NCBI GenBank assembly: GCA_964403395.1 | Contig: CAYOGD010000001.1 | Location: 1 to 54,853 of the forward strand | Reading direction: 5' to 3' | DNA from: an uncultured Alkaliphilus sp. | Lineage (GTDB): Bacteria; Bacillota; Clostridia; Peptostreptococcales; Natronincolaceae | Length of the DNA: 54,853 nucleotides | In this document: positions 6,656 through 53,784 of the stretch, one piece after another | How the letters are laid out: every line of letters starts with the position of its first letter | Position numbering within the stretch: the stretch's first letter is position 1 | Position numbers and translations under genes: made by a program | The notes under the pieces: generated by a model | Told to the model about the DNA's origin: nothing | What the model saw: the letters and a program-made list of their open reading frames with translations, nothing else | Databases searched by the model: none

Positions 6656-7279
6656 ATGGGTATAAGAAACAAGCAGAACATAATATTGGCAATTATGGTA
6701 ATAATTATAGTTTTGATATTTTCAATTTCAAATTATATAAAACAACAGAAAGTATATGTATTAAGCGATGATACAGAAGAGAACATAATTTGGGACCATA
6801 ATGAAAATAATATGATTGAACAATCTGAGGCAGGTAAAATAGTAGTACATATAGAAGGAGAGGTGGAAAAACCGGGAGTATATGAATTGAAGAAAGATTC
6901 AAGGGTTTACGATGCTATTGATGCAGCAGGAGGATTACTAAAAGACGCTGATAGAAGAAGGATAAATTTAGCTAAAAAAATAACAGATGAAGAATACATA
7001 TACATAGCAAATAAAAATGAAGAAGATTTAGGGATCACATATAGAGAAAATCTATTGACGCCCACTGATGTTATTGAGAATACAAATTTGATAAACATTA
7101 ATAGGGCAAATATAATGGAATTAAAAGAATTACCCGGCATAGGGGATGTACTGGCCGGCAGGATAATAGAATATCGCAACGAAAAAGGGGGATTTAAATC
7201 CATAGAGGAAATAAAAAACGTGAATGGGATAGGAGATAAAAGATTCAGTGATATAAAGGATAAAGTAACTATTAACTGA
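6656..7279 (+). CDS. comEA: ComEA-family DNA-binding protein (SLBB plus tandem helix-hairpin-helix)
   Basis: N-terminal TM helix, then an SLBB-like region (VHIEGEVEKPGVYELKKDSRVYDAIDAAGG), then a C-terminal region ELKELPGIGDVLAGRIIEYRNEKGGFKSIEEIKNVNGIGDKRF. Confidence 0.85.
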   Translation: MGIRNKQNIILAIMVIIIVLIFSISNYIKQQKVYVLSDDTEENIIWDHNENNMIEQSEAGKIVVHIEGEVEKPGVYELKKDSRVYDAIDAAGGLLKDADRRRINLAKKITDEEYIYIANKNEEDLGITYRENLLTPTDVIENTNLININRANIMELKELPGIGDVLAGRIIEYRNEKGGFKSIEEIKNVNGIGDKRFSDIKDKVTIN

Positions 7280-7322
7280 TGACAGCTAAATAATGGTTGA
7301 ACAACAGTTTTAAAGGAGGATA

Positions 7323-8369
7323 ATGATGACAAAATCTCAAAGGCTGACACAGATGACCAAAAGTGCCGGCTGAGCCGCTAAAATCGGACCCGATGTTCTT
7401 GCGCAGGTTCTGTGCAATTTACCAGGTATAGAAGATGAAAGATTAATAATAGGCTCGGATACCTCCGATGATGCCGCGGTTTATAAACTCAATGATGAAA
7501 TAGCGCTTGTTCAAACTTTGGATTTTTTTACCCCGGTTGTGGATGATCCGTATATATTTGGCCAGGTAGCAGCGGCGAATTCTTTGAGCGATGTGTATGC
7601 TATGGGAGGAAAACCGCTTATGGCTATGAATATCGTTTGTTTTCCCGAATGCTTAGAGCTTGAAGTGCTCAAACAAATATTGAAGGGCGGCGCAGATAAG
7701 GCGGTGGAAGCAGGAGCCTTACTGGTTGGCGGACATAGTGTAAAGGATGAGGAACCTAAATATGGACTTTCTGTTACAGGAATAGTTCATCCTGAAAAAG
7801 TATTAGCTAATAATACGGCTAAGGTTGGAGATTATCTGATACTTACAAAGCCCCTCGGTTTAGGAGTTTTAAATACAGCTATAAAAGCGGATATAGCCTC
7901 TAAAGAGCAGTATGATATGGCAGTAAAAACCATGGTTACATTAAATAAGTATGCTTTTGAAGCACTGGACGGGCTTAATATCTCTTCATGTACGGATATT
8001 ACAGGTTTCGGTTTTATGGGGCATGCCTACGAAATGGCTAAGGGCAGTGGTGTTTCTCTGGAAATATATTCGGATAAAATACCTATAATAGATGGAGCAA
8101 GGGAACTTGCCGGTTCGGGCATCATTCCCATTGGGATGTATTCTAACAAAAATTATGTGGAAGATGATGTAGAGCTGGATGAAGATATAGATGAAACCAT
8201 AGAGGATTTATTATATGATCCCCAGACTTCCGGCGGTTTACTGGTTGCAATAGATGAAGCCGATGTGGAGAAAGCATTGGAAAGGCTATCCGTCAATACG
8301 GATAATGAATTTGCAGTAGTCGGTAAGGTAATCAGCAAGGATGACGAAGCTATATATATCAAGAAATAG
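7323..8369 (+). CDS. selD: Selenide, water dikinase (selenophosphate synthetase), a selenocysteine-containing form with in-frame UGA at 7371-7373
   Basis: The track lists only 7518..8369. The same frame is open back to ATG 7323 (AGGAGG at 7314-7319) apart from one TGA. The translation [30 protein letters not shown]...[28 protein letters not shown] parallels E. coli SelD [20 protein letters not shown]...DDAAVYDLNDG...TDFFMPIVD, and the TGA falls at catalytic Cys17. selA and selB are adjacent. Confidence 0.9.
7399..7417 (+). promoter_or_regulatory. Candidate SECIS apical hairpin for the selD UGA
   Basis: UUGCGCA-GGUUC-UGUGCAA forms a 7-bp stem (one G.U pair) with a GGUUC loop, starting 25 nt after the UGA. 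It resembles the apical GGUC-loop hairpin of the E. coli fdhF SECIS as I recall it. It was folded by eye only. Confidence 0.4.
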
Positions 8370-8494: not shown

Positions 8495-8553
8495 AGTCAT
8501 ATAAACCGGATAAGGTCATAAAAAACAATTGTTAATTAGGGGTGGATTTAGTT

Positions 8554-9957
8554 ATGAACAAAGGCAAAATACTCAGCAAATTACCCTCGGTGGATGAATT
8601 GCTGAACAATGAGGGGATTATAAACTTACTTGAAGAAATTCCCCGTAATGTAGTGGTGAATGAAATCCGCAACAATTTAGAAAAATATCGCAGGCAAATT
8701 TTATCCATGGATGAAGAATCTTTAGATAAATTTAAAATTGATATAGAGAGAATCATATTTGATACAATCAATAGCAGCTATGAGTTTATGGAGATGAATT
8801 TAAAGGAAGTCATAAACGGAATGGGCACGATATTGCATACTAATCTAGGCAGGGCACTTTTAAGTGAAACCATCAGAGATCAAGTATGGAGCGTAGCCGG
8901 GGGCTACTCTACATTGGAAATTGATATTTCAACAGGAAAAAGGGGAATTCGTTATAGCCATGTTGTTGAAATTATAAAATTTATAACCAAGGCCGAAGAC
9001 GCCCTGGTTGTCAACAACAATGCGGCGGCCGTTATGCTTGCGCTCAGCACGATGGCCAAAGATAAGGAAGTGATCGTTTCCAGGGGAGAATTAGTAGAGA
9101 TAGGGGGGTCCTTTAGGGTACCTGAGGTGATGAAACAGAGCGGTACAAAATTGGTGGATATTGGAACAACAAATAAGACCCATCTATGGGATTACGAAAG
9201 CGCAATAACTGAAAACACGGCGGCTTTACTAAAAGTACACACCAGCAATTATAGAATATTGGGTTTTACAGATAGTGTAAATCTCAAGGATCTGGTGGAA
9301 CTGGGCAAGAAAAATAATATACCTGTGATTGAAGATATAGGCAGCGGTGTTTTAGTGGATTTACGAAAATACGGCTTGGGTTATGAGCCGACAGTACAGG
9401 AAAGTATTGCAGCAGGCATTGATGTAGTTACCTTTAGCGGAGATAAATTGTTGGGAGGGCCTCAAGCAGGTATTATCATAGGCAAGAAATGCTATATAGA
9501 TAAAATGAAAAAGAATCAATTGACCAGGGCCTTTAGAATTGATAAATTGACTCTTGTGGCATTGGAAGCGACCTTGAAACTTTATTTGGATGAGGAAAAA
9601 GCTATAAAAACCATACCCACATTAAGAATGTTAACAGAATCCTTAGATTCCGTTAACAAGAAAGCCAAAACATTATACGATATGATTTTATCAAAAAAAT
9701 TGGATTTAGAGATCGGCATAGATAAGGATTACTCGGAAGTCGGCGGTGGCGCACTGCCTTTGGAAGAATTGCCAACCCATGTCGTAACAATCAGGCCTAA
9801 CAATATTTCATCTTCACAGTTAGAGGACAGACTGAGGAAATACAGCACCCCTATATTTACCAGAGTAAATGACGACAGGGTGATAATCGATCTGCGAACT
9901 GTAAAAGAGGAGCAGTATGAAACAATAGTACAGGCATTAACAGAAGTTACAAAATAA
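8554..9957 (+). CDS. selA: L-seryl-tRNA(Sec) selenium transferase
   Basis: The N-terminus has KLPSVDELL. The PLP-lysine motif FSGDKLLGGPQAG is present. The length is about 467 aa. Start chosen at ATG 8554 (MNKGKILSKLPSVD); the track start at 8542 is the alternative. Confidence 0.9.
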   Translation: MNKGKILSKLPSVDELLNNEGIINLLEEIPRNVVVNEIRNNLEKYRRQILSMDEESLDKFKIDIERIIFDTINSSYEFMEMNLKEVINGMGTILHTNLGRALLSETIRDQVWSVAGGYSTLEIDISTGKRGIRYSHVVEIIKFITKAEDALVVNNNAAAVMLALSTMAKDKEVIVSRGELVEIGGSFRVPEVMKQSGTKLVDIGTTNKTHLWDYESAITENTAALLKVHTSNYRILGFTDSVNLKDLVELGKKNNIPVIEDIGSGVLVDLRKYGLGYEPTVQESIAAGIDVVTFSGDKLLGGPQAGIIIGKKCYIDKMKKNQLTRAFRIDKLTLVALEATLKLYLDEEKAIKTIPTLRMLTESLDSVNKKAKTLYDMILSKKLDLEIGIDKDYSEVGGGALPLEELPTHVVTIRPNNISSSQLEDRLRKYSTPIFTRVNDDRVIIDLRTVKEEQYETIVQALTEVTK

Positions 9958-10082: not shown

Positions 10083-11987
10083 ATGAAAAACATTATAATC
10101 GGAACGGCGGGACATATAGATCATGGAAAAACTACATTGATAAAAGCACTGACAGGCCATGAAACGGACAGATTGGGTGAAGAAAAGAAGAGAGGCATTT
10201 CCATACAGCTGGGTTTTACGTATTTTGATTTGCCCAGCGGAAGAAGAGCAGGAATTATAGATGTGCCGGGACATGAAAGGTTTGTGAGAAATATGCTCAC
10301 AGGTGTGGGAGGCATGGATATTGTCATGCTGGTTATTGCAGCTGATGAAGGTGTGATGCCGCAAACGAAGGAACATCTTGATATTCTGTCTCTGCTTAAA
10401 ATCGAAAAAGGAATTATTGTGATTACAAAGTCCGCTTCGGTTGATGAGGAATGGTTGGAACTGGTCAAAGAAGATATCAGGGAGAAAGTAGAAGGTACAT
10501 TCCTCGAAAATAGTGAAATAATAGCGGTGGATTCCATCGAAGGTACGGGAATCGATGAATTGATCAATAAAATAGATAGATTGACGGAGGAAACAGAGAG
10601 CAGAGACATCAATGCACCTGCCAGGATGCCCATAGACAGAATATTTACTATTGTCGGATTTGGGACGGTGGTGACCGGAACCTTGACAGAAGGAAAAATA
10701 TCAGTCGAAGATATATTAGAAATTTTACCGCAACAAGTGAAAGTTCGCATAAGAAACATTCAGGTTCACGGACAATCCGTGGGCACAGCATATGCAGGGC
10801 AGAGGGTAGCCATCAATCTTGCAAATGTAAAGTTGGAGGATATTGAAAGAGGGCAAGTGTTGGCACAAACCGATTCAATAGAACCTACAATGATGATAGA
10901 TGCAAAGCTGAATTTGCTCAAAGACATACCAAGGGCTATCAAAAATCGTGACAGGGTGAGAATATATCATGGGGCTACGGAGGTTCTTGCCAGGGTTACC
11001 TTATTGAATAAAGAGGAAGGAAAAGCGGGGGAAAGCATTTATGTTCAATTTAGATTGGAGGAAATCACGGCCGTAAAAAAAGAAGACCACTTAGTTGTCA
11101 GATACTATTCGCCTATGGAGACCCTTGGGGGTGCAATAGTGATCGATGCAAATCCCAAAAAACATAATAGATTTGACGAAAATGTAATTAAGGATTTAGC
11201 TGCCAGAGAACAGGGGAGCCCCGAAGAGATCATAGAAAAACAGATAGATATTCACAGTAAGGAGTTTCCTGATATATCTTTTATAGCAAAACTGACAGCG
11301 CAGCAATTAAACGATATAAAATCATCAGTGTCCGATCTGGCGGATAAAAACAAGATATTAGTATTGGGAAATGATAATGTTATTCATAGAAACTATTATG
11401 AAAATATAAGGGAACAATTAATAAATTTACTGTCGGTTTACCATAAATCTAATCCTCTTAAATTGGGAATGTTGAAAGAAGAGGTCAGGAGCAGATTGTT
11501 CCCTGGAAACAAAAGCAGGAGTATCGATATTTTAATGGATGTATTCGTGGAGAACAAAATTGTAAAAATCGAAGACAAATTTATATCTTTATATGATTTT
11601 GAAGTTGAATTTTCTCCGATTCATAAAAAAATACAGGAACAGCTGGAGCATATATACCTGCAGAAACAATATGCAACACCAAAATTTGAAGACATAGTTG
11701 ATGCCATAGAGTTTGAAAGGAATGATATAGAGCAGGTTTTCGATTCTATATTAGGGAATACCTTGATCAGATTAAATCAAGAAGTTGTGTTCCATGTCAA
11801 ATCATATGAAGATGCCAAAGCAGAACTGATAGATCATATCAACAAAAATGGCAATATCACATTGTCACAATTTAGGGATATATTAGGTACCAGCAGAAAG
11901 TATGCCGTCGCATTGTTAGAATATTTCGATAATGAAAAAGTTACAAAAAGAATAGGCGAGGAGAGAGTTTTATACCGGCAGGTTTAA
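10083..11987 (+). CDS. selB: Selenocysteine-specific translation elongation factor
   Basis: GTAGHIDHGKTTLIKALTG and DVPGHERF give the G-domain. EF-Tu-like domains II and III follow. A long C-terminal winged-helix extension ends ...RKYAVALLEYFDNEKVTKR, typical of the SelB mRNA-binding domain. Confidence 0.9.
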   Translation: MKNIIIGTAGHIDHGKTTLIKALTGHETDRLGEEKKRGISIQLGFTYFDLPSGRRAGIIDVPGHERFVRNMLTGVGGMDIVMLVIAADEGVMPQTKEHLDILSLLKIEKGIIVITKSASVDEEWLELVKEDIREKVEGTFLENSEIIAVDSIEGTGIDELINKIDRLTEETESRDINAPARMPIDRIFTIVGFGTVVTGTLTEGKISVEDILEILPQQVKVRIRNIQVHGQSVGTAYAGQRVAINLANVKLEDIERGQVLAQTDSIEPTMMIDAKLNLLKDIPRAIKNRDRVRIYHGATEVLARVTLLNKEEGKAGESIYVQFRLEEITAVKKEDHLVVRYYSPMETLGGAIVIDANPKKHNRFDENVIKDLAAREQGSPEEIIEKQIDIHSKEFPDISFIAKLTAQQLNDIKSSVSDLADKNKILVLGNDNVIHRNYYENIREQLINLLSVYHKSNPLKLGMLKEEVRSRLFPGNKSRSIDILMDVFVENKIVKIEDKFISLYDFEVEFSPIHKKIQEQLEHIYLQKQYATPKFEDIVDAIEFERNDIEQVFDSILGNTLIRLNQEVVFHVKSYEDAKAELIDHINKNGNITLSQFRDILGTSRKYAVALLEYFDNEKVTKRIGEERVLYRQV

Positions 11988-12275: not shown

Positions 12276-12821
12276 ATGAATAGGAAAGTAAATATAAAAG
12301 AGATGACAAAATTATCATTATGTATAGCATTGATTTGTATATCATCTTATATCATAATCCCACTGCCTTTTACACCGATAATGATCACCGGGCAGACAAT
12401 TGCAATAAATTTGACAGCTTTAATTTTGAACCCCATACACAGTGCCGCATGTGTTGCGATATTTATACTCCTGGGTGCGGGCGGGTTACCCGTATTTGCA
12501 GGTGGAAACAGCGGTTTAGGAACATTGTTGGGACCAACTGGCGGATTTATAACAGGGTTTTTATTTGCGGTTATGGCAATAAGTCACTTAAAAGGCGAAA
12601 AGATAAATCTATTTCGATATCTATTGGTGACCGTTTTTATAGGGATGCCTATAATACATTTATCAGGTGCACTTTATATGAGTTATATATTAAATATAAC
12701 ATACATAAAAGCCATACGGCTTGCCGTAATTCCGTTTTTAGCAGGAGACTCAATCAAAGCCATATTGGCTTCTATAATTGCGGTGAGGTTAAACAATTAT
12801 TTAACATCATTTACTTGCTGA
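12276..12821 (+). CDS. bioY: Biotin transporter BioY (ECF S-component)
   Basis: 181 aa with six hydrophobic segments. LPFTPIMITGQT and GPTGGFITGF resemble the BioY signature regions. Confidence 0.85.
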   Translation: MNRKVNIKEMTKLSLCIALICISSYIIIPLPFTPIMITGQTIAINLTALILNPIHSAACVAIFILLGAGGLPVFAGGNSGLGTLLGPTGGFITGFLFAVMAISHLKGEKINLFRYLLVTVFIGMPIIHLSGALYMSYILNITYIKAIRLAVIPFLAGDSIKAILASIIAVRLNNYLTSFTC

Positions 12822-12827
12822 TAGCAC

Positions 12828-12856
12828 TTTACATATCCAATATTTTAGTGTATATT
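12828..12856 (+). promoter_or_regulatory. Candidate promoter for tRNA-Thr
   Basis: TTTACA (12828-12833), a 17-nt spacer, then TATATT (12851-12856). Confidence 0.45.
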
Positions 12857-12907
12857 AGTGTATAGCTGTACAGGCAAAGCCGTAACGTCTGTTTAAATTT
12901 AATCCGT

Positions 12908-12982
12908 GCTGATGTGGCTCAGAGGTAGAGCACTTCCTTGGTAAGGAAGGGGTCGACGGTTCGATTCCGTTCATCAGCTCCA
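12908..12982 (+). tRNA. tRNA-Thr (anticodon GGU), CCA encoded
   Basis: Cloverleaf read by eye. The acceptor stem is GCTGATG with CATCAGC. The anticodon stem is CTTCC with GGAAG, and the loop is TTGGTAA. The T-loop is GGTTCGATTCC, and a 3' CCA is present. Confidence 0.95.
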
Positions 12983-26335: not shown

Positions 26336-26567
26336 AAGAAAATATGAATATAAAAAAATTCTGAGATGTTCGTAAGACCTATTAAAATTCAACCTACAAT
26401 ATACATCCGGGAGATTATATTTTTATTTGGACGAAAAGCCATCTCTGAGTGGACTTCGAAAGAATAAAATGTGTCACCCACCTAAAAGAGAGGCTAGGAT
26501 GTGAATTTTACGGTTAACGGCATCTTGGATTTATTTTACGGATCTTCCAATATTGGAAGATTTTTTT
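26336..26567 (+). ncRNA. Candidate structured sRNA of about 230 nt with a rod-like fold (6S-RNA-like); identity unconfirmed
   Basis: Extended -10 TGTATAAT (26322-26329). Strong terminator ATCTTCCA with TGGAAGAT plus T7 (26541-26567). No ORF with an RBS. Long-range pairings: TCTGAGATG (26360-26368) with CATCTTGGA (26521-26529), and TAAAATTCA (26383-26391) with TGAATTTTA (26502-26510). The locus sits between convergent genes. Confidence 0.4.
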
Positions 26568-46150: not shown

Positions 46151-46642
46151 ATGTTTAGAGTAGGGATAATTACTTCCAGTGATAAGGGTTCGAGGGGTGA
46201 AAGAGAAGACCTGTCGGGGCCCGTTATTGCAGAATTGGTGGGGGCAAAAGGTTATGAGGTTATAAGACAGGTGATAGTACCCGATAATGCGGAGGAATTG
46301 ACACGGGAAATGATCCATATGGCAGATGAATTAAAGGTAGACCTGATATTAACCACAGGAGGTACAGGATTTAACAAAAGGGATGTAACTCCTGAAGCTA
46401 CTCTTGGCGTTTGTGACAGGATGGCAAACGGTATTGTCGAGGCTATAAGGTATCACAGCCTTAATATTACTTCCAGGGCAATGCTTTCCAGGGCGGTTTC
46501 CGGAATAAGGGGAGGGACGCTGATAGTAAATCTTCCCGGAAGTCCAAAGGCTGTCAAAGAGGCTTTAGATTATGTTTTGGATAGTATTTATCATGGACTA
46601 GAAATATTGACCGATAGAACCAGCGATTGTGCCAGGAAATAG
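46151..46642 (+). CDS. mog: MogA/MoaB-family molybdopterin adenylyltransferase
   Basis: VGIITSSDKGSRGEREDLSGP...ILTTGGTGFNKRDVTPEA...NLPGSPKA, the MoCF_biosynth domain motifs. Confidence 0.85.
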   Translation: MFRVGIITSSDKGSRGEREDLSGPVIAELVGAKGYEVIRQVIVPDNAEELTREMIHMADELKVDLILTTGGTGFNKRDVTPEATLGVCDRMANGIVEAIRYHSLNITSRAMLSRAVSGIRGGTLIVNLPGSPKAVKEALDYVLDSIYHGLEILTDRTSDCARK

Positions 46643-46694
46643 AAAGGTGAAATGGACTTAAATAATTTTAGTCCTGATGATAGGGGCAATTTTA

Positions 46695-47477
46695 ATGGAG
46701 CTGATCAAAAAATATAATATATTGAAAATAGATGGTAAAAATAAGGCCATAGTAGAAGACATAGTGATAATAGAGTATCCCCTTACCATTTTTATAAATA
46801 ATGAAGAGATTGTAACTCTTTTATGCAGCCCTAAATCTCTAGAATATTTAGCGATAGGATTTTTATATTCCGAAGGCTTTATAAGGGATTATTCCGAAAT
46901 AGATGATATTCGAATAGATGAGGAATGGGGAAGGGTTTATGTAGGATTAGAGGTGAAAAATGTTCCCGATAAACAGTTACAACTAAAGAAGACAATAACT
47001 TCAAGCGGCGGAAGGGGTATGATACCCTACAATATGTCGGGCCCTTTAAAGTCGAGGCAAACAGCAACCCCTCAGGATATATCAATTTATGAAATAAAAA
47101 AATTGATGACGGAATTTAGCAAAAGTTCGGATCTCTTTTATGCAACCGGGGGGGTTCATGTTTGTGCTATATGTGATAATAATGGTATAATATATTTTGA
47201 AGAAGATATCGGAAGACATAATGCATTAGATAAGGTGCTGGGCAAAGCACTGACAGAGAATATGGGCCTGGGGGATAAGATGATTTTGGCCAGCGGCAGA
47301 ATTTCTTCCGAAATGTTGACAAAAGCGGTGAAGATGGGCATTATGGTGGTAGTTTCCAGGTCTGCTCCAACATCATCGGCTGTTCATATGGCCAGAGAAT
47401 TAAATGTAATTTTGATAGGATTTGCAAGAGGAGAAAAAATGAATATTTATAGTAATTTTTCGAGCTTAAAATTCTAA
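46695..47477 (+). CDS. fdhD: Formate dehydrogenase accessory sulfurtransferase FdhD
   Basis: GGVHVCA..., EDIGRHNALDKVLG and VSRSAPTSSAV motifs. The start is uncertain (46677 or 46695). Confidence 0.8.
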   Translation: MELIKKYNILKIDGKNKAIVEDIVIIEYPLTIFINNEEIVTLLCSPKSLEYLAIGFLYSEGFIRDYSEIDDIRIDEEWGRVYVGLEVKNVPDKQLQLKKTITSSGGRGMIPYNMSGPLKSRQTATPQDISIYEIKKLMTEFSKSSDLFYATGGVHVCAICDNNGIIYFEEDIGRHNALDKVLGKALTENMGLGDKMILASGRISSEMLTKAVKMGIMVVVSRSAPTSSAVHMARELNVILIGFARGEKMNIYSNFSSLKF

Positions 47478-47484
47478 AGCTGAA

Positions 47485-47590
47485 ATTTAGCCAAGAATTA
47501 AAGCCTATGGGTATGAGGGGAAACCCCTATGCCTCCCGTATTCGGAAAGGAAGATATTATGCAGCCTTTTCCCGGGCTGTTTTTTCATTT
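47485..47590 (+). promoter_or_regulatory. Molybdenum-cofactor (Moco) riboswitch candidate with intrinsic terminator
   Basis: A GGTATGAGGGG-AAA-CCCCTATGCC hairpin is followed by the conserved-looking CCTCCCG...GGAAAGGA segment. The terminator CAGCC, loop TTTTCCCG, GGCTG plus T6 (about 47562-47586) then follows. It lies directly upstream of moeA. Confidence 0.55.
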
Positions 47591-47696
47591 GGGAATTCAA
47601 AAAAATATAAGGCTGAAGAATCGTCAGGTAATTCATAATTGACAACTGAGCCACATCATGTTGTTATTGATCAGACGGAAGAAGGTGGTGCTTTAA

Positions 47697-48926
47697 ATGG
47701 ATTTTTTTAATGTGGTTAGCGTTGATGAGGGTAGAAAAATATTGATGGAAAACTTTGGAGATTATGACCTTAAAACTGAATATGTAGATTTGGAGCACAG
47801 TATTAACAGAGTTTTAGGGGAAGATATATATTCGGCTATAAATGTGCCTGAATTTAATCGCTCTACGGTAGATGGTTATGCTATTAAGGTTGAAGACAGT
47901 CATGGGGCTAATCAGTCCATACCCAGTATTATAAATATATTAGGGGAAGTGATGATGGGGGAACAGACAAATTCATCCATTAAAAGCGGAGAATCATTTT
48001 ATGTTCCAACGGGAGGCATGATTCCGGAAGGTTCCGATGGGGTTGTTATGGTGGAGCACGTAGAAAAAATGGACAGTAACACACTCCTAATATACAAACC
48101 CATATCACAGGGTGAAAACATCAATTATAAAGGCGATGACATAAAAAAAGGAGAATTGATTTTAAAAAAAGGTTGGAAAATAACTACCGGAGCTGTAGGG
48201 GTTTTAGCAGCCTTGGGAATTTCTAAGGTATGTGTATATTGCAAACCAAGGTTTTATATAATATCTACGGGCGATGAGATAATAGATATAGAGGAAGAAT
48301 TAACTCTGGGCAAGATTAGGGACATCAATTCTTATACATTGTGTTCATTGGTCCATAATATCGGAGGAATTGTAGTTGGAAGGAAGATAGTGAAGGATAG
48401 TTATGAATTATTGCAGGATGAAGTGAAAAAGGCTATAGATATATCGGATATAATTCTTTTGTCCGGGGGCAGTTCTGTAGGTACAAGGGATTATACGGGC
48501 AAAGTTATAGATTCATTTGATGGAAAAGGAGTATTGTTTCATGGTTTGGCTATAAAACCGGGAAAACCCACCATTGTGGGTGAAGCAGGCAGCAAATTAA
48601 TTTGCGGGTTGCCGGGACATCCGGTATCCTCAATTATAGTATTTAAAGCGTTGCTGGAATATTATATCAGAAAAAGGATGGGGATAATGGAAATAATACC
48701 AAGAGTAAAAGCCATAATGGATTATAATTTCCGGTCTGATCCCGGTAAAGAGACATATCAGATGATTGAGTTGAGACAAGAAGGAGAGAATTTTTATGGC
48801 GTCCCATCATTTGGTAAATCCGGCATGATCAGTTTATTATCCAAATCTCAAGGATATATAATAATAGGTTCACATGAAGAGGGAATTTATAAAGGGGAAG
48901 AGCGGGAAGTTTATCTGCTTCAGTAA
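47697..48926 (+). CDS. moeA: Molybdopterin molybdenumtransferase MoeA
   Basis: NRSTVDGYAI, PTGGMIP, STGDE, LLSGGSSVGTRDY and IKPGKP motifs. Length is 409 aa. Confidence 0.9.
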   Translation: MDFFNVVSVDEGRKILMENFGDYDLKTEYVDLEHSINRVLGEDIYSAINVPEFNRSTVDGYAIKVEDSHGANQSIPSIINILGEVMMGEQTNSSIKSGESFYVPTGGMIPEGSDGVVMVEHVEKMDSNTLLIYKPISQGENINYKGDDIKKGELILKKGWKITTGAVGVLAALGISKVCVYCKPRFYIISTGDEIIDIEEELTLGKIRDINSYTLCSLVHNIGGIVVGRKIVKDSYELLQDEVKKAIDISDIILLSGGSSVGTRDYTGKVIDSFDGKGVLFHGLAIKPGKPTIVGEAGSKLICGLPGHPVSSIIVFKALLEYYIRKRMGIMEIIPRVKAIMDYNFRSDPGKETYQMIELRQEGENFYGVPSFGKSGMISLLSKSQGYIIIGSHEEGIYKGEEREVYLLQ

Positions 48927-49066
48927 AATTAAATTAAAATCCGGTTTCTGACCGGTAATCAGAAGGACGGAAATTTATCTACCTTGATAAAATCGAGCTT
49001 GTATAATTTTGAATATCTTTGTGCAGGTAATTGTTCTTTAAATAAACAAACGGTGAGGTGAAATAA

Positions 49067-50956
49067 ATGGATAGAAGTACTTATATAGATAATATACCGG
49101 TGGAGGAAGCCAAGGCTGAATATTTCGAACGGTTAAATATTCAAACTCACTTTGAGGAACTGGTTCCTACGGATGCTTTAAATAGGGTGACTTATGAAGC
49201 AATATATGCTGAGATGAGTTCCCCCGGTTACAATGCGGCAGCAATGGATGGTATAGCTGTTGTAGCTGCTAAGACAAAAGGTGCTACAGAAATTTCGCCG
49301 GTGATTTTGGTGGAAGGTGAAGATTTTTCCTATGTCAATACCGGAAATCAGATTTTGAATCCTTATGATTCTGTTATAATGATTGAAGATGTAATCGACC
49401 TAGGAAATGGACAAGTTAAAATTTTAAAATCCGCCTATCCGTGGCAACATATCAGACAGATTGGGGAAGATATAGTAGCTACTGAAATGATAATACCGTC
49501 CAGACATGTGATCAGGCCTATTGATCTGGGCGCATTGATATCCGGGGGTATTGAAAGGTTAAAGGTATATAGGAAACCGAGGGTAGGTATTCTTCCAACC
49601 GGCACAGAGATAGTTGAAGACATAAAACAGGTGACAGACGGTAAAATTATAGATTCTAATTCTCGGGTTTTTGAGGGTTTGGTAAAAGAATATGGAGGTA
49701 TACCCAACAGGTATGTTCCTCATGGTGATGATTACCAACTATTGATAGAGGCAATATCAAAAGGTGTTGACGAAAATGATATGCTGCTTATAAATGCGGG
49801 CTCTTCCGCAGGGACTACTGATTATACGGTTAAATTGATTGAAGAATTAGGCGAGGTTGTGGTTCATGGAGTAGCCATGCAGCCGGGAAAACCAACTATT
49901 TTAGGTGTTATAAACAATAAACCCGTAATAGGGGTTCCGGGATATCCTGTCTCCGCGTATTTTATATTTGAAACTTTTGTAAAACCAGTGATAGAGAAAT
50001 ATATTGGGATTGAATCAAAGGATGAAGATATTATTCAGGGTGTGCTTTCCAATAGAATTGTATCATCACTGAAAAATAGAGAGCTGGTAAGATTGAATTT
50101 AGGATATGTAGGGGAAAATTTAATAGCTACTCCGATAGGTGGTGGGGCCGGAGCAACCATGAGTCTTGTAAAGGCTGACGGGATAGGTGTTATTCCCAGG
50201 AATATTGAGGGGATAGATGCAGGTGATACCATTGAAATTAGCCTATTAAAACCTATATCAACTATAAAATCAAAACTGGTATCTATAGGTAGCCATGATT
50301 TGATTATGGATGTATTAGGAGATATGACCGGACTCTCTTCAGGACATGTAGGGAGTATGGGTGGAATATTATCCATGAAAAGGGGAGAGTCTCATATAGC
50401 CCCGATTCATTTACTGGATGAGGAAACTGGGGAATACAATATAAGTTATGTTAAAAAATATTTTCCTGAACAGAAAATGGCCCTTATTAAGGGAGTAAAA
50501 AGACTGCAAGGTTTTATTGTACAAAAGGGAAATCCTAAAGGAATAATAGATTTTAAGGACTTAATAAAAGAGGGAGTTTCTTATGCCAATAGGCAAAGGG
50601 GTGCAGGTACCAGGGTGTTGTTGGATTATCATTTAAAGTTAGATAGTATAGACTCACATCTTGTAGAAGGTTATACCAGGGAATTGAATACACATATGGC
50701 TGTAAGCGCGGCAGTAAAAACAGGCTCTGCTACTACGGGGTTAGGTATTTATTCTGCAGCAAAGGCCATGGAGTTGGATTTTGTAGATGTAACTTATGAA
50801 GATTATGATTTTTTGGTGACATATGAATCATTAGAAGATCCAAGGATTAAGAAATTTATCAAACTATTAAAATCAGATCTTTTCCAATCCCGTGTAGATA
50901 AATTGGGTGGATATAAATTTGAAAACACAGGAGACGTAATAACAATAGGAAGCTAG
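49067..50956 (+). CDS. MoeA-like protein fused to a C-terminal periplasmic-binding-protein-like (molybdate/tungstate-binding-type) domain
   Basis: The N-terminal roughly 400 aa are MoeA-like (AAMDGIAV, PTGTE, INAGSSAGTTDY, MQPGKP). The C-terminal roughly 220 aa are a PBP-like fold (LVSIGSHD...RQRGAGTR...). Confidence 0.8.
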   Translation: MDRSTYIDNIPVEEAKAEYFERLNIQTHFEELVPTDALNRVTYEAIYAEMSSPGYNAAAMDGIAVVAAKTKGATEISPVILVEGEDFSYVNTGNQILNPYDSVIMIEDVIDLGNGQVKILKSAYPWQHIRQIGEDIVATEMIIPSRHVIRPIDLGALISGGIERLKVYRKPRVGILPTGTEIVEDIKQVTDGKIIDSNSRVFEGLVKEYGGIPNRYVPHGDDYQLLIEAISKGVDENDMLLINAGSSAGTTDYTVKLIEELGEVVVHGVAMQPGKPTILGVINNKPVIGVPGYPVSAYFIFETFVKPVIEKYIGIESKDEDIIQGVLSNRIVSSLKNRELVRLNLGYVGENLIATPIGGGAGATMSLVKADGIGVIPRNIEGIDAGDTIEISLLKPISTIKSKLVSIGSHDLIMDVLGDMTGLSSGHVGSMGGILSMKRGESHIAPIHLLDEETGEYNISYVKKYFPEQKMALIKGVKRLQGFIVQKGNPKGIIDFKDLIKEGVSYANRQRGAGTRVLLDYHLKLDSIDSHLVEGYTRELNTHMAVSAAVKTGSATTGLGIYSAAKAMELDFVDVTYEDYDFLVTYESLEDPRIKKFIKLLKSDLFQSRVDKLGGYKFENTGDVITIGS

Positions 50957-50964
50957 GTGATAAA

Positions 50965-51921
50965 ATGAGAGATTCATTTGGGAGAAAGATAACCTATCTC
51001 AGGATATCCTTAACGGACAGGTGTAATTATAGATGTATTTATTGTATGCCTCAAAGAGGTATAGATGATAAACTGGATCATGAGGATATGTTGTCCTTAG
51101 AAGAGATGTATGTACTGATAAAAGATTTTGTAGAATTAGGAATCAATAAAATCAGATTTACTGGCGGGGAGCCTTTGGTTAGAAGAGGCATAGTTGACTT
51201 AGTAGGTAAAGTGAATAAGTTAGAAGGGATTAAGGAATTAACTATGACCACAAACGGGCAGCTATTAAAACAAATGGCCGGGCCTTTGAAGGAAGCCGGG
51301 TTAAATAGAGTTAATATCAGTTTAGACACATTAGACCCTGTGAAGTTTGTGGAAATTACAAGATGCGGGGATTTAAATGCTGTATTGGAAGGTATCGACG
51401 AAGCTATAAATGTAGGATTGACCCCGGTAAAAATCAATACGGTACTGATCGGTGGAATAAATGACAATGAAATAAGAGATTTGATAGATTTTACTAAAAG
51501 AGGTATAGATGTAAGGTTCATAGAGTTGATGCCTATAGGAGAGGCCGCTAATTTTGCCAAGGAAAGATTTGTTTCTACCAATCTGGTGTTAGAGACTGTA
51601 AAGGAACTGGTTCCTATAGAAAGGGAGGATAAGTCTTCCCCGGCAACTTATTATGTTCTTCCCGGCGTTAAAGGTAAAGTGGGGCTTATAAATCCTATTT
51701 CTTGTAAATTCTGTGAAAATTGTAATAGGGTCAGACTCACATCTTCAGGAAAATTAAAGCTCTGCTTGCATTCGGATAGGGAAATAGATTTGAAATCCGC
51801 ACTGCGGAACAATGAGGATATCAAAAAAATTATTAAAGATGCTATATGGACCAAAGAGGAAAGTCATCACTTAGAAGATGAACAGTATATAATCAGAAAT
51901 ATGCATCAAATAGGAGGGTAG
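50965..51921 (+). CDS. moaA: GTP 3',8-cyclase (radical SAM)
   Basis: CNYRCIYC radical-SAM cluster motif, FTGGEPL, and the C-terminal cluster cysteines [21 protein letters not shown]. Confidence 0.92.
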
Positions 51922-51923
51922 AT

Positions 51924-52397
51924 ATGGACGAGTTAACTCACTTTAACAAAAGCGGCAGGGCCCATATGGTAGAAGTGGGAAGCAAGGATATAACTAAGAG
52001 AACTGCCATAGCTAGAGGGAAAATTATTATGAAAGATGAAACCCTTCAAAGGATAAAAGATGGATTGATAGAAAAAGGTGATGTATTGTCAGTTGCTCAG
52101 GTAGGGGGAATAATGGGGGCTAAAAAAACCAGTGAGCTGATCCCCATGTGTCATAATATATCCTTGACGGGGGCGGACATCAGATTTCAGTTTATTCATA
52201 ATGGTGTAGAGGTAGAAGCGGAAGTTAATGCTGCAGACAAAACCGGGGTTGAAATGGAGGCATTGACTGCAGTGAGCTTAGCATGTCTAACAATCTATGA
52301 TATGTGTAAGGCTATGGACAGAGGCATGGTGATTCAGGATATAATGTTGGTTAAAAAAACGGGCGGAAAATCAGGCGTGTTTACGAGAGAAAAATAG
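51924..52397 (+). CDS. moaC: Cyclic pyranopterin monophosphate synthase
   Basis: [18 protein letters not shown]...LIPMCHNI...[24 protein letters not shown] is the canonical MoaC sequence. Confidence 0.92.
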
Positions 52398-52587: not shown

Positions 52588-52695
52588 TTATACACATAAT
52601 AATTTAAATTGAATAAATTAATAGTATATGTAAATGAAGAGATTTTATCGGGACTATGAACTATCGGGCAAATCGTTTGGATGGAGGAGATTATA

Positions 52696-53784
52696 ATGGC
52701 GAAAAAAGGGTGTATTAAAAGGCTTTTACCCGGCAGCAACACATCTATCGGGTTCTATTCGTATTTTGAATATGTCATAGATCAAAAAGAAGCGAGAAAA
52801 ATTTATTATTTTAAGGGTGCTCCCGGCGTGGGAAAATCCTATATGATGAAAAAGATAGGTTATGAAATAATTGATAGAGGGATGGACGTGGAATTTCATC
52901 ACTGTGCCGCAGATCCGGAATCTATTGATGCAATTGTTATACCGAGTATAAAAGTAGGTATAATAGATGGCACAACCCCTCATGCCATTGATCCGAGGTA
53001 TCCGGGTGTCACGGGAACAATAGTCAATCTAGACGAATTTTTAAACGAAGAGGGTTTAAAAAGAGTTAAAAACAGTATTATAGAATCTACAGAAGATAAT
53101 AAGAATATCTATATCAGAATATATAAATATCTTGCAGCGGCAAAATTGATACATGATGATATTGAATGGATCAATAGTTATTCCATGAATTTTAATAAAG
53201 TCAACGAGGAGACTGATAAATTAATAAATGGATATTTAAATATTATTGGGGAAAGAAATAAATTGGGTAGGGAGAGACACCTTTTTGGAAGTTCGTACAC
53301 ATTAAAGGGCAGGATAGACCATGCTGAAACCTTTATCGGTATAATGGGGGATATCATTCATATAAAAGGGGACGATGGTACGGGCAAATCGGAATTGCTC
53401 AAAAAGTTATCGTCTATAGCATTGAATAAAGGCTATGATGTGGAGATCTACCACGAGCCATTAGTACCGAAAAAAATAGAATCCATTGTTATTGCGGAAC
53501 TCGATTTAGCCTTTACAACAAATAATAAATTTTTCAATAAAAAAACCGTGGACTTAGATATGCATATAGATGATATGAAGATCAAAAAATATAAAGAAGA
53601 GTTAAAGCATAGTAAAAAGATATTTAACAGATTGTTAAATGATGCTTTTGTCTACTTAGGGAAGACTAACGCTGCTCATAATAGAATAGAGGAATATTAT
53701 GCTCCAAACATCTTTTATGAAGATTTAAACAAGGCCAGAGAAAATATATTAGAGGAAATAATTGAAATCAAAAAACAAAAATAA
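52696..53784 (+). CDS. Conserved hypothetical ATPase with two P-loop modules (internal duplication)
   Basis: GAPGVGKS...MDVEFHHCAADPESIDAIVIP is mirrored by GDDGTGKS...YDVEIYHEPLVPKKIESIVIAE. ATG 52696 follows GGAGGAG. Confidence 0.7.
   Translation: MAKKGCIKRLLPGSNTSIGFYSYFEYVIDQKEARKIYYFKGAPGVGKSYMMKKIGYEIIDRGMDVEFHHCAADPESIDAIVIPSIKVGIIDGTTPHAIDPRYPGVTGTIVNLDEFLNEEGLKRVKNSIIESTEDNKNIYIRIYKYLAAAKLIHDDIEWINSYSMNFNKVNEETDKLINGYLNIIGERNKLGRERHLFGSSYTLKGRIDHAETFIGIMGDIIHIKGDDGTGKSELLKKLSSIALNKGYDVEIYHEPLVPKKIESIVIAELDLAFTTNNKFFNKKTVDLDMHIDDMKIKKYKEELKHSKKIFNRLLNDAFVYLGKTNAAHNRIEEYYAPNIFYEDLNKARENILEEIIEIKKQK

Follow-up and report, generated by a model that had tools for sequence, protein, structure and literature searches.

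Does the selD gene of an uncultured Alkaliphilus sp. lack its catalytic N-terminus, or is that segment hidden behind a stop codon that the cell reads as selenocysteine (Sec)? The gene, for selenide, water dikinase, lies in a 54,853-nucleotide stretch of contig CAYOGD010000001.1 (assembly GCA_964403395.1), hereafter the window, meaning the whole stretch that was analysed. In a mechanically made list of its open reading frames (ORFs), the selD frame begins with the codon TTG at 7518 and runs to 8369, encoding 283 aa. As the first-pass annotation pointed out, this start drops the catalytic loop, which aligns further upstream: read in the same frame, the true frame opens approximately 65 codons 5' of the listed ORF, and a single in-frame stop, the TGA at 7371 to 7373, separates two upstream ATG codons from the terminator at 8367 to 8369. 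We consider it very probable that this is an ordinary Sec-type selD, heading a selD-selA-selB cluster of a low-GC (36%) Clostridia-like anaerobe. A second copy was looked for, and the 54.9-kb window holds one selD only. The features of the gene are as follows.

7314 to 7319, plus strand: Shine-Dalgarno sequence AGGAGG of selD, read directly, 3 nt before the ATG at 7323 and 6 nt before the ATG at 7326
7326 to 7328, plus strand: likeliest start codon of selD, ATG (alternative: the ATG at 7323 to 7325)
7323 to 8369, plus strand: full coding sequence of selD, of 348 codons if counted from 7323 and 347 if counted from 7326, the recoded UGA included, with the stop codon at 8367 to 8369
7371 to 7373, plus strand: in-frame UGA, the probable Sec codon, at the catalytic position equivalent to Cys17 of Escherichia coli SelD, assigned from alignment and conservation

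The first-pass annotation had paired the ribosome-binding site with the ATG at 7323, giving a product of 348 aa with Sec at residue 17. The AGGAGG motif and the sole in-frame stop stand, as does the full-length SelD that they imply, but the choice of start codon does not hold up as well. In four relatives (L081, L083, L084 and L086), the sole ATG aligns with position 7326 of the window, and the codon equivalent to 7323 is ATA, GTA or AAA. GGAGG-like motifs occur in relatives at the position equivalent to the AGGAGG of selD. Because relatives conserve the equivalent of 7326, and because the 6-nt spacing that it gives from the AGGAGG is the more usual one, translation more likely starts at 7326 than at 7323. 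The product would then probably be a protein of 347 aa with Sec at residue 16.

The identity of this product was assessed with protein queries of the 348-aa form, in which Cys was put at the TGA site. The NCBIfam equivalog profile for SelD (TIGR00476), whose cut-off is 125 bits, gave a score of 403.8 bits, and its positions 1-309 of 311 are covered by residues 7-313 of the product. Since the match starts at the first profile position, the segment upstream of the listed ORF is the missing N-terminus of the SelD family. Full-length alignments were also obtained with the PDB structures of the SelD proteins from Aquifex aeolicus (2yye, 1.6e-73) and E. coli (3u0o, 1.7e-72), so that, in the alignment check proposed by the first reading, the upstream codons proved homologous to characterised SelD N-termini. 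The alignment with 3u0o pairs the TGA residue for residue with Cys17, as had been claimed, and the Lys three residues further on (E. coli Lys20) is kept. The loop SAG-[UGA]-AAK thus aligns with GAG-C-GCK in E. coli and SSG-C-AAK in Aquifex, the longer Aquifex stretch SSGCAAKVGP standing against SAG-U-AAKIGP in the window. The closest named homologues are those of Anaerovirgula multivorans (71% identity), Clostridium aceticum (69%), Alkaliphilus metalliredigens (68%) and Natronincola (67-68%), and metagenomic relatives reach 89-98%. These matches support the identification of the product as a selenide, water dikinase with predicted ATP-dependent synthesis of selenophosphate.

The conservation of the UGA was assessed at two evolutionary depths. 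Among the matches listed, 80 species-representative genomes, all at 61% identity or less, were surveyed for the homologous codon; 75 could be scored and five had no match to the motif. The codon was TGA in 66 of the 75 scorable genomes and TGT or TGC in the other nine, and the genomes bearing either type span Bacillota, Collinsella, Chloroflexota and delta-proteobacterial metagenome-assembled genomes (MAGs). Closer relatives were found by exact-protein look-up at nine loci, representing six distinct sequences with 69-90% identity. All six have the start codon, RLTQ(M/L)TKS(A/S)G, the TGA and AAKIGPDVL, and in all six the called gene begins after the site. The upstream sequence and the TGA are therefore conserved in the orthologues of close relatives, none of which starts at an equivalent of the 7518 methionine. 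Across the ten codons 5' of the TGA, comparison with these relatives showed 23 synonymous and six nonsynonymous codon changes, and this predominance of synonymous change indicates that these codons are translated and that purifying selection acts on them.

These data bear directly on the possibility that the gene is a pseudogene, its TGA being an inactivating nonsense mutation in a former Cys-type selD. A lone in-frame stop near the 5' end does resemble such a mutation, and gene callers handle TGA in that way. However, the same TGA recurs across several phyla (66 genomes) and none of the close relatives lacks it, and purifying selection acts on the codons that flank it. A covarying SECIS-like hairpin lies downstream and selA and selB are intact (see below), which leaves a pseudogene with a practically negligible likelihood.

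It could also be proposed that the functional protein is truncated, starting at the TTG at 7518 or at another internal start, and that 7323 to 7373 is a short upstream ORF or leader. How the gene is represented in databases favours this view at first sight. We inspected the best 120 SelD homologues (P0001-P0120) retrieved from a catalogue of 5.8 billion protein sequences: 42 start downstream of the site (276-327 aa), and the remaining 78 are full-length with W at the site (SAGWAAK, SSGWAAK). In none of the 120 is Sec or Cys annotated there. The first-pass statement that automated annotation would truncate the gene is thus borne out by these 42 entries, which include the named NCBI/UniRef proteins of Alkaliphilus metalliredigens QYMF (319 aa), Clostridium aceticum (312 aa), and Natronincola and Anaerovirgula (312-313 aa). 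Moreover, the Pfam domains of the product, PF00586 (AIRS; 99.6 bits, residues 48-154) and PF02769 (AIRS_C; 70.5 bits, residues 166-345), begin only at residue 48. The catalytic loop lies outside every Pfam domain, so truncated SelD calls still look complete. Nevertheless, a protein shortened in this way would lose the Sec/Cys17-Lys20 loop, which aligns perfectly upstream, and there is no in-frame start codon between the TGA and 7518. The segment from the TGA to 7518 is conserved as protein, as are the ten codons before the TGA, with mostly synonymous change, and the truncated calls in relatives start at non-homologous positions, as artefacts would. We therefore regard a genuinely truncated SelD as highly improbable. 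One of these entries, P0048, the 319-aa SelD of Alkaliphilus metalliredigens QYMF, begins at MLCHIPRIKDEK, just 3' of the position of the UGA in relatives. Table 3 of a 2006 selenoproteome survey gives 11 selenoproteins for this strain, SelD not among them (PMC1794560). Judging from the position of its called start, the selD of Alkaliphilus metalliredigens QYMF is probably Sec-type as well.

A Sec codon in bacteria is expected to be followed by a Sec insertion sequence (SECIS), and the range 7360 to 7440, which the first-pass annotation had singled out for such a search, does contain a candidate. The published criteria for a bacterial SECIS (bSECIS) are a loop of 3-9 nt with a G in its first two positions, a stem of 4-16 bp, a spacing of 16-37 nt and a minimum free energy of -7.5 kcal/mol or lower (PMC13188914). 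We applied these constraints through our own strict, bulge-free implementation, which returned the following element.

7399 to 7417, plus strand: probable SECIS, hairpin B, UUGCGCAG-GUU-CUGUGCAA, with its stem formed by 7399 to 7406 and 7410 to 7417 and the apical loop GUU at 7407 to 7409

Hairpin B fits all of these constraints: its loop is GUU (starting G-U), its stem has 8 bp, its distance from the UGA is 33 nt and its energy is -8.6 kcal/mol. No other hairpin after the 27 TGA-split frames, counted over the two strands of the window, does so. Covariation was examined in an ungapped alignment of the 54 nt starting at the TGA, from 67 distinct Sec-type genes. In the register of hairpin B (columns 29-36 with 40-47), 76.1% of the cells are paired, compared to 27-47% in all slid registers. 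Its covariation score is 0.367, compared to 0.09-0.16 in slid registers, a value reached by none of 500 shuffles, and 81 cells carry a double change where shuffles give 33 +/- 6. Several Watson-Crick types are seen at each of the pairs 30-46, 33-43 and 36-40; pair 33-43 is CG in 18 genes, AU in 12, UA in eight and GC in four, and pair 30-46 is UA in 19, CG in 16 and GC in nine. In both of these pairs, the wobble position of an Ala or Leu codon is matched with the opening base of codon 31 or 32. As the covariation ties a synonymous site to one that changes the amino acid, selection at the protein level alone does not explain it.

The hairpin is absent from the nine Cys-type genes. All eight pairs are present in 35 of the 67 Sec-type genes and at least seven in 38, whereas the nine Cys-type genes have six at most. 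Folding energies of the region average -11.2 kcal/mol in genes of the hairpin B class and -3.9 kcal/mol in Cys-type genes, the window having -9.4 kcal/mol. Under our strict implementation, 40 of 67 Sec-type genes pass the bSECIS constraints, as against two of the nine Cys-type genes. Taken together, the comparison suggests, rather than proves, that hairpin B would be the element bound by SelB.

The hairpin overlaps codons whose products vary among relatives. Positions 7398 to 7418 encode residues 26-32 (L-A-Q-V-L-C-N), and in relatives residue 31 is C, S, G or R and residue 32 is N, H, D or K. Across the hairpin stem, both covary with the synonymous wobble bases of the codons for Ala and Leu. 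RNA structure appears to constrain the protein sequence of SelD at these two residues.

The machinery that such an element would serve is encoded immediately downstream. As the first reading had it, selA and selB directly follow selD, and both score above their equivalog cut-offs.

8542 to 9957, plus strand: selA, L-seryl-tRNA(Sec) selenium transferase (TIGR00474, 610.8 bits against a cut-off of 267.9), with an approximate start
10083 to 11987, plus strand: selB, Sec-specific elongation factor (TIGR00475, 387.6 bits against a cut-off of 242)
6656 to 7279: comEA-like gene upstream of selD, ending in TGA

The Pfam domains found in SelB are GTP_EFTU, Beta-barrel_SelB, SelB-wing_2 and SelB-wing_3, the winged helices being those that bind the SECIS. 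A D-Ala-D-Ala carboxypeptidase gene also lies upstream of selD, on the minus strand, and the order PBP, comEA, selD, selA, selB is kept in relatives at 82-90% identity. The genes for the biotin transporter BioY and for tRNA-Thr(GGU) stand directly 3' of selB (12276 to 12982, plus strand), in the same order as in the relative L083. In two Anaerovirgula-like relatives (L086, 4066 to 5466, and L087, 1220 to 2578), a gene for a Na+/alanine symporter lies on the opposite strand between selD and selA, which breaks the contiguous arrangement of the two genes there.

From these components we infer that Sec is inserted at the UGA at 7371 to 7373. Following the general bacterial mechanism as summarised in PMC13188914 and PMC1794560, translation would start at the ATG at 7326 (or 7323), and the SECIS hairpin at 7399 to 7417, 25 nt 3' of the UGA, would recruit SelB carrying Sec-tRNA(Sec) and GTP. 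The C-terminal winged helices of SelB would bind the hairpin, and Sec would be delivered, with no termination, when the UGA at 7371 enters the A site. The product would be a selenide, water dikinase of 347 or 348 aa with a flexible N-terminal loop, SAG-U-AAK, bearing Sec in place of E. coli Cys17. This enzyme would make the selenophosphate from which SelA makes Sec-tRNA(Sec). Since SelA needs selenophosphate from a SelD that itself contains Sec, the synthesis of Sec would depend on a Sec enzyme.

Several results weigh against this interpretation. Folded as a single sequence, the region after the UGA is no better than its shuffles (z = -0.2 to -1.1), and because this folding is not significant, the case for a SECIS rests on the comparative data. 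No SECIS family of Rfam was found in the whole window at the gathering threshold, nor in positions 7250-7550 at E <= 10, where the only matches were snoRNA-like and of the kind expected by chance. Bacterial SECIS elements are poorly conserved in sequence, and a match in Rfam is not part of what defines them. The 33-nt spacing of hairpin B is near the upper end of the allowed 16-37 nt, and the 29 Sec-type homologues out of 67 that do not have hairpin B must use another element. Finally, the gene for tRNA-Sec (selC) was not found in the 54.9-kb window with ARAGORN or Rfam, nor beside the cluster in relatives, including L083, so that the window by itself does not establish a full set of Sec-decoding genes.

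The failure to find selC in the window is also one of two points in favour of a UGA that is read through as something other than Sec: a reassigned code might make it Trp or Gly, or near-cognate suppression might place Cys or Trp there. The other point is the W carried at the site by the 78 database homologues mentioned above. However, TGA is an ordinary terminator in the window, ending six of its 34 ORFs of at least 200 aa, including the comEA gene just upstream, and hence the code is the standard one. The W in the databases would be explained by gene callers that choose code 4 or 25 on short contigs and translate the TGA accordingly. Trp would make no biochemical sense at a catalytic Cys/Sec position, which in Cys-type homologues is encoded by TGT or TGC, and selD is adjoined by the dedicated selA and selB genes. 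We consider a read-through without Sec very unlikely. The conservation of the TGA, the selection on its flanks and its normal use as a terminator in the window (35.8% GC) together lead us to reject a pseudogene, a truncated product and a reassigned code in favour of a Sec-type selD.

If Sec is inserted, it could still be asked which element directs it, since a second hairpin lies closer to the UGA.

7383 to 7394, plus strand: hairpin A (AUCG-GACC-CGAU), a weak structure spanning the codons for Ile-Gly-Pro-Asp, with -1.3 kcal/mol and a 13-nt spacing, both outside the bSECIS limits

Instead of B alone, hairpin A (region 7383-7398) or the two hairpins combined might act as the SECIS. The position of hairpin A is nearer to that known for the SECIS of E. 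coli fdhF. The 29 Sec-type homologues without hairpin B have an A-type hairpin only, and in the lineages concerned the qualifying loops are located 16-20 nt after the UGA. Hairpin A also gives a weak covariation signal. In the window, however, its two versions have very little stability (-1.3 and -0.1 kcal/mol) and fall outside the published limits, and folding of the region is no better in Sec-type genes (-6.1 kcal/mol) than in Cys-type genes (-7.1 kcal/mol), so that it does not tell the two types apart. Hairpin B, in contrast, is strong, covarying and confined to Sec-type genes. Hairpin A was therefore rejected as the SECIS of the window selD, and a role for it, alone or combined with B, seems unlikely to us.

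The genes without the window-type hairpin, which include Clostridium sensu stricto, Syntrophomonas and Chloroflexota MAGs, raise a broader point. Sec-type selD genes form two classes by the spacing of the loop, which lies 32-35 nt after the UGA in 30 genes, the window included, and 16-20 nt after it in 10. Orthologous Sec-type selD genes might thus use two alternative SECIS positions, over the Gly-Pro codons at 16-20 nt or over the Leu-Ala-Gln-Val-Leu-Cys codons at 32-35 nt, the element having moved within the coding region, although we put this forward only as a tentative proposal. Were it true, the SECIS of the second class would limit which amino acids can stand at residues 31-32. Should SelB in these lineages work over a spacing that exceeds the one in E. 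coli fdhF by approximately 14 nt, this would also bear on the SECIS-SelB geometry that is tolerated on the ribosome.

For annotation, the consequence of a Sec-type selD at this locus is that the gene should be recorded as a selenoprotein of 347 or 348 aa with a translation exception at 7371 to 7373, not as a protein of 283-319 aa or a pseudogene. That none of the 120 closest homologues is correctly represented is a matter of data quality, and domain-based checks miss the loss of the catalytic loop. Read in this way, selD would mark the organism as a Sec user whose supply of selenophosphate depends on Sec itself.

Outside the selenium cluster, the window contains a full-length match to 6S RNA and a molybdenum-cofactor region (46151 to 52397, plus strand).

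26355 to 26535, plus strand: 6S RNA (Rfam RF00013, 85 bits)
46151 to 46642, plus strand: gene for a MoCF_biosynth protein
46677 to 47477, plus strand: fdhD
47446 to 47567, plus strand: molybdenum cofactor (Moco)/tungsten riboswitch (68.3 bits), overlapping the last ~30 nt of fdhD
47697 to 48926, plus strand: moeA
49067 to 50956, plus strand: moeA-PBP_like fusion
50965 to 51921, plus strand: moaA
51924 to 52397, plus strand: moaC
52681 to 53784, plus strand: ORF whose match to the nSTAND3 NTPase domain, limited to the N-terminal part of that domain, is marginal (28.1 bits against a cut-off of 27.2, no stretch passing alone)

Since fdhD is present, a formate dehydrogenase, an enzyme that is often a selenoprotein, may be encoded outside the window; no fdhA or other formate dehydrogenase gene was found near fdhD or in the window. 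The ORF at 52681 to 53784 may encode a STAND protein of the defence or signalling type. As for other selenoprotein genes in the window, none of the 27 TGA-split frames on the two strands, apart from that of selD, has a qualifying hairpin.

Sec-type SelD proteins are well documented. SelD was reported among the two most widespread bacterial selenoprotein families, with 38 Sec-type members catalogued by 2006, including those of Clostridium difficile, C. perfringens, Moorella thermoacetica, Thermoanaerobacter tengcongensis and Syntrophomonas wolfei (PMC1794560). In its spread among bacteria, Sec-type SelD ranks second of the selenoprotein families (PMC1794560, PMC13188914). Reviews also rank it second in size among those of prokaryotes, locate its Sec in the N-terminal loop, and describe truncation of such genes as the standard failure of annotation pipelines (PMC13188914, PMC9312934). 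An early prediction method left SelD out of the markers of the Sec machinery "because it can be a selenoprotein itself" (PMC1242214). That Sec synthesis relies in this way on its own product was noted for Sec-type selD homologues as early as 1996, according to the citation of Guimaraes et al. (PNAS) in PMC8659212, and has been under discussion since then. The finding of a Sec-type selD is thus correct but already known, and the understanding of selenium biology is unchanged by it.

Compared with individual systems, the window gene shares with E. coli SelD (3u0o) full-length homology, the RLTQ...G-x-x-x-K loop, Lys20 and, by family assignment, the same reaction, but E. coli selD has a Cys codon (TGC/TGT) in place of the UGA and does not need a SECIS. 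E. coli selD is not known to be clustered with selA and selB. The closer parallel in gene order is with the selDABC-type clusters of Gram-positive anaerobes, such as Eubacterium acidaminophilum, which have co-oriented, adjacent selD, selA and selB genes with a UGA-containing selD; in the window, selB is followed by bioY and tRNA-Thr instead of selC. The motif G-U-AAK-(I/V)-GP matches the loop of Aquifex SelD (2yye), which has Cys in the deposited chain. The hairpin at 7399 to 7417 fits the bSECISearch model (Zhang & Gladyshev 2005) as summarised in PMC13188914, in which the apical loop opens with a G followed by G or U, and its spacing is near the upper limit. Finally, the catalogued Sec-type SelD proteins of bacteria (PMC1794560) belong to the same family, with a UGA in the catalytic loop and a SECIS just downstream within the coding sequence, in anaerobic Clostridia; nothing essential distinguishes them from the selD described here, which is another orthologue.

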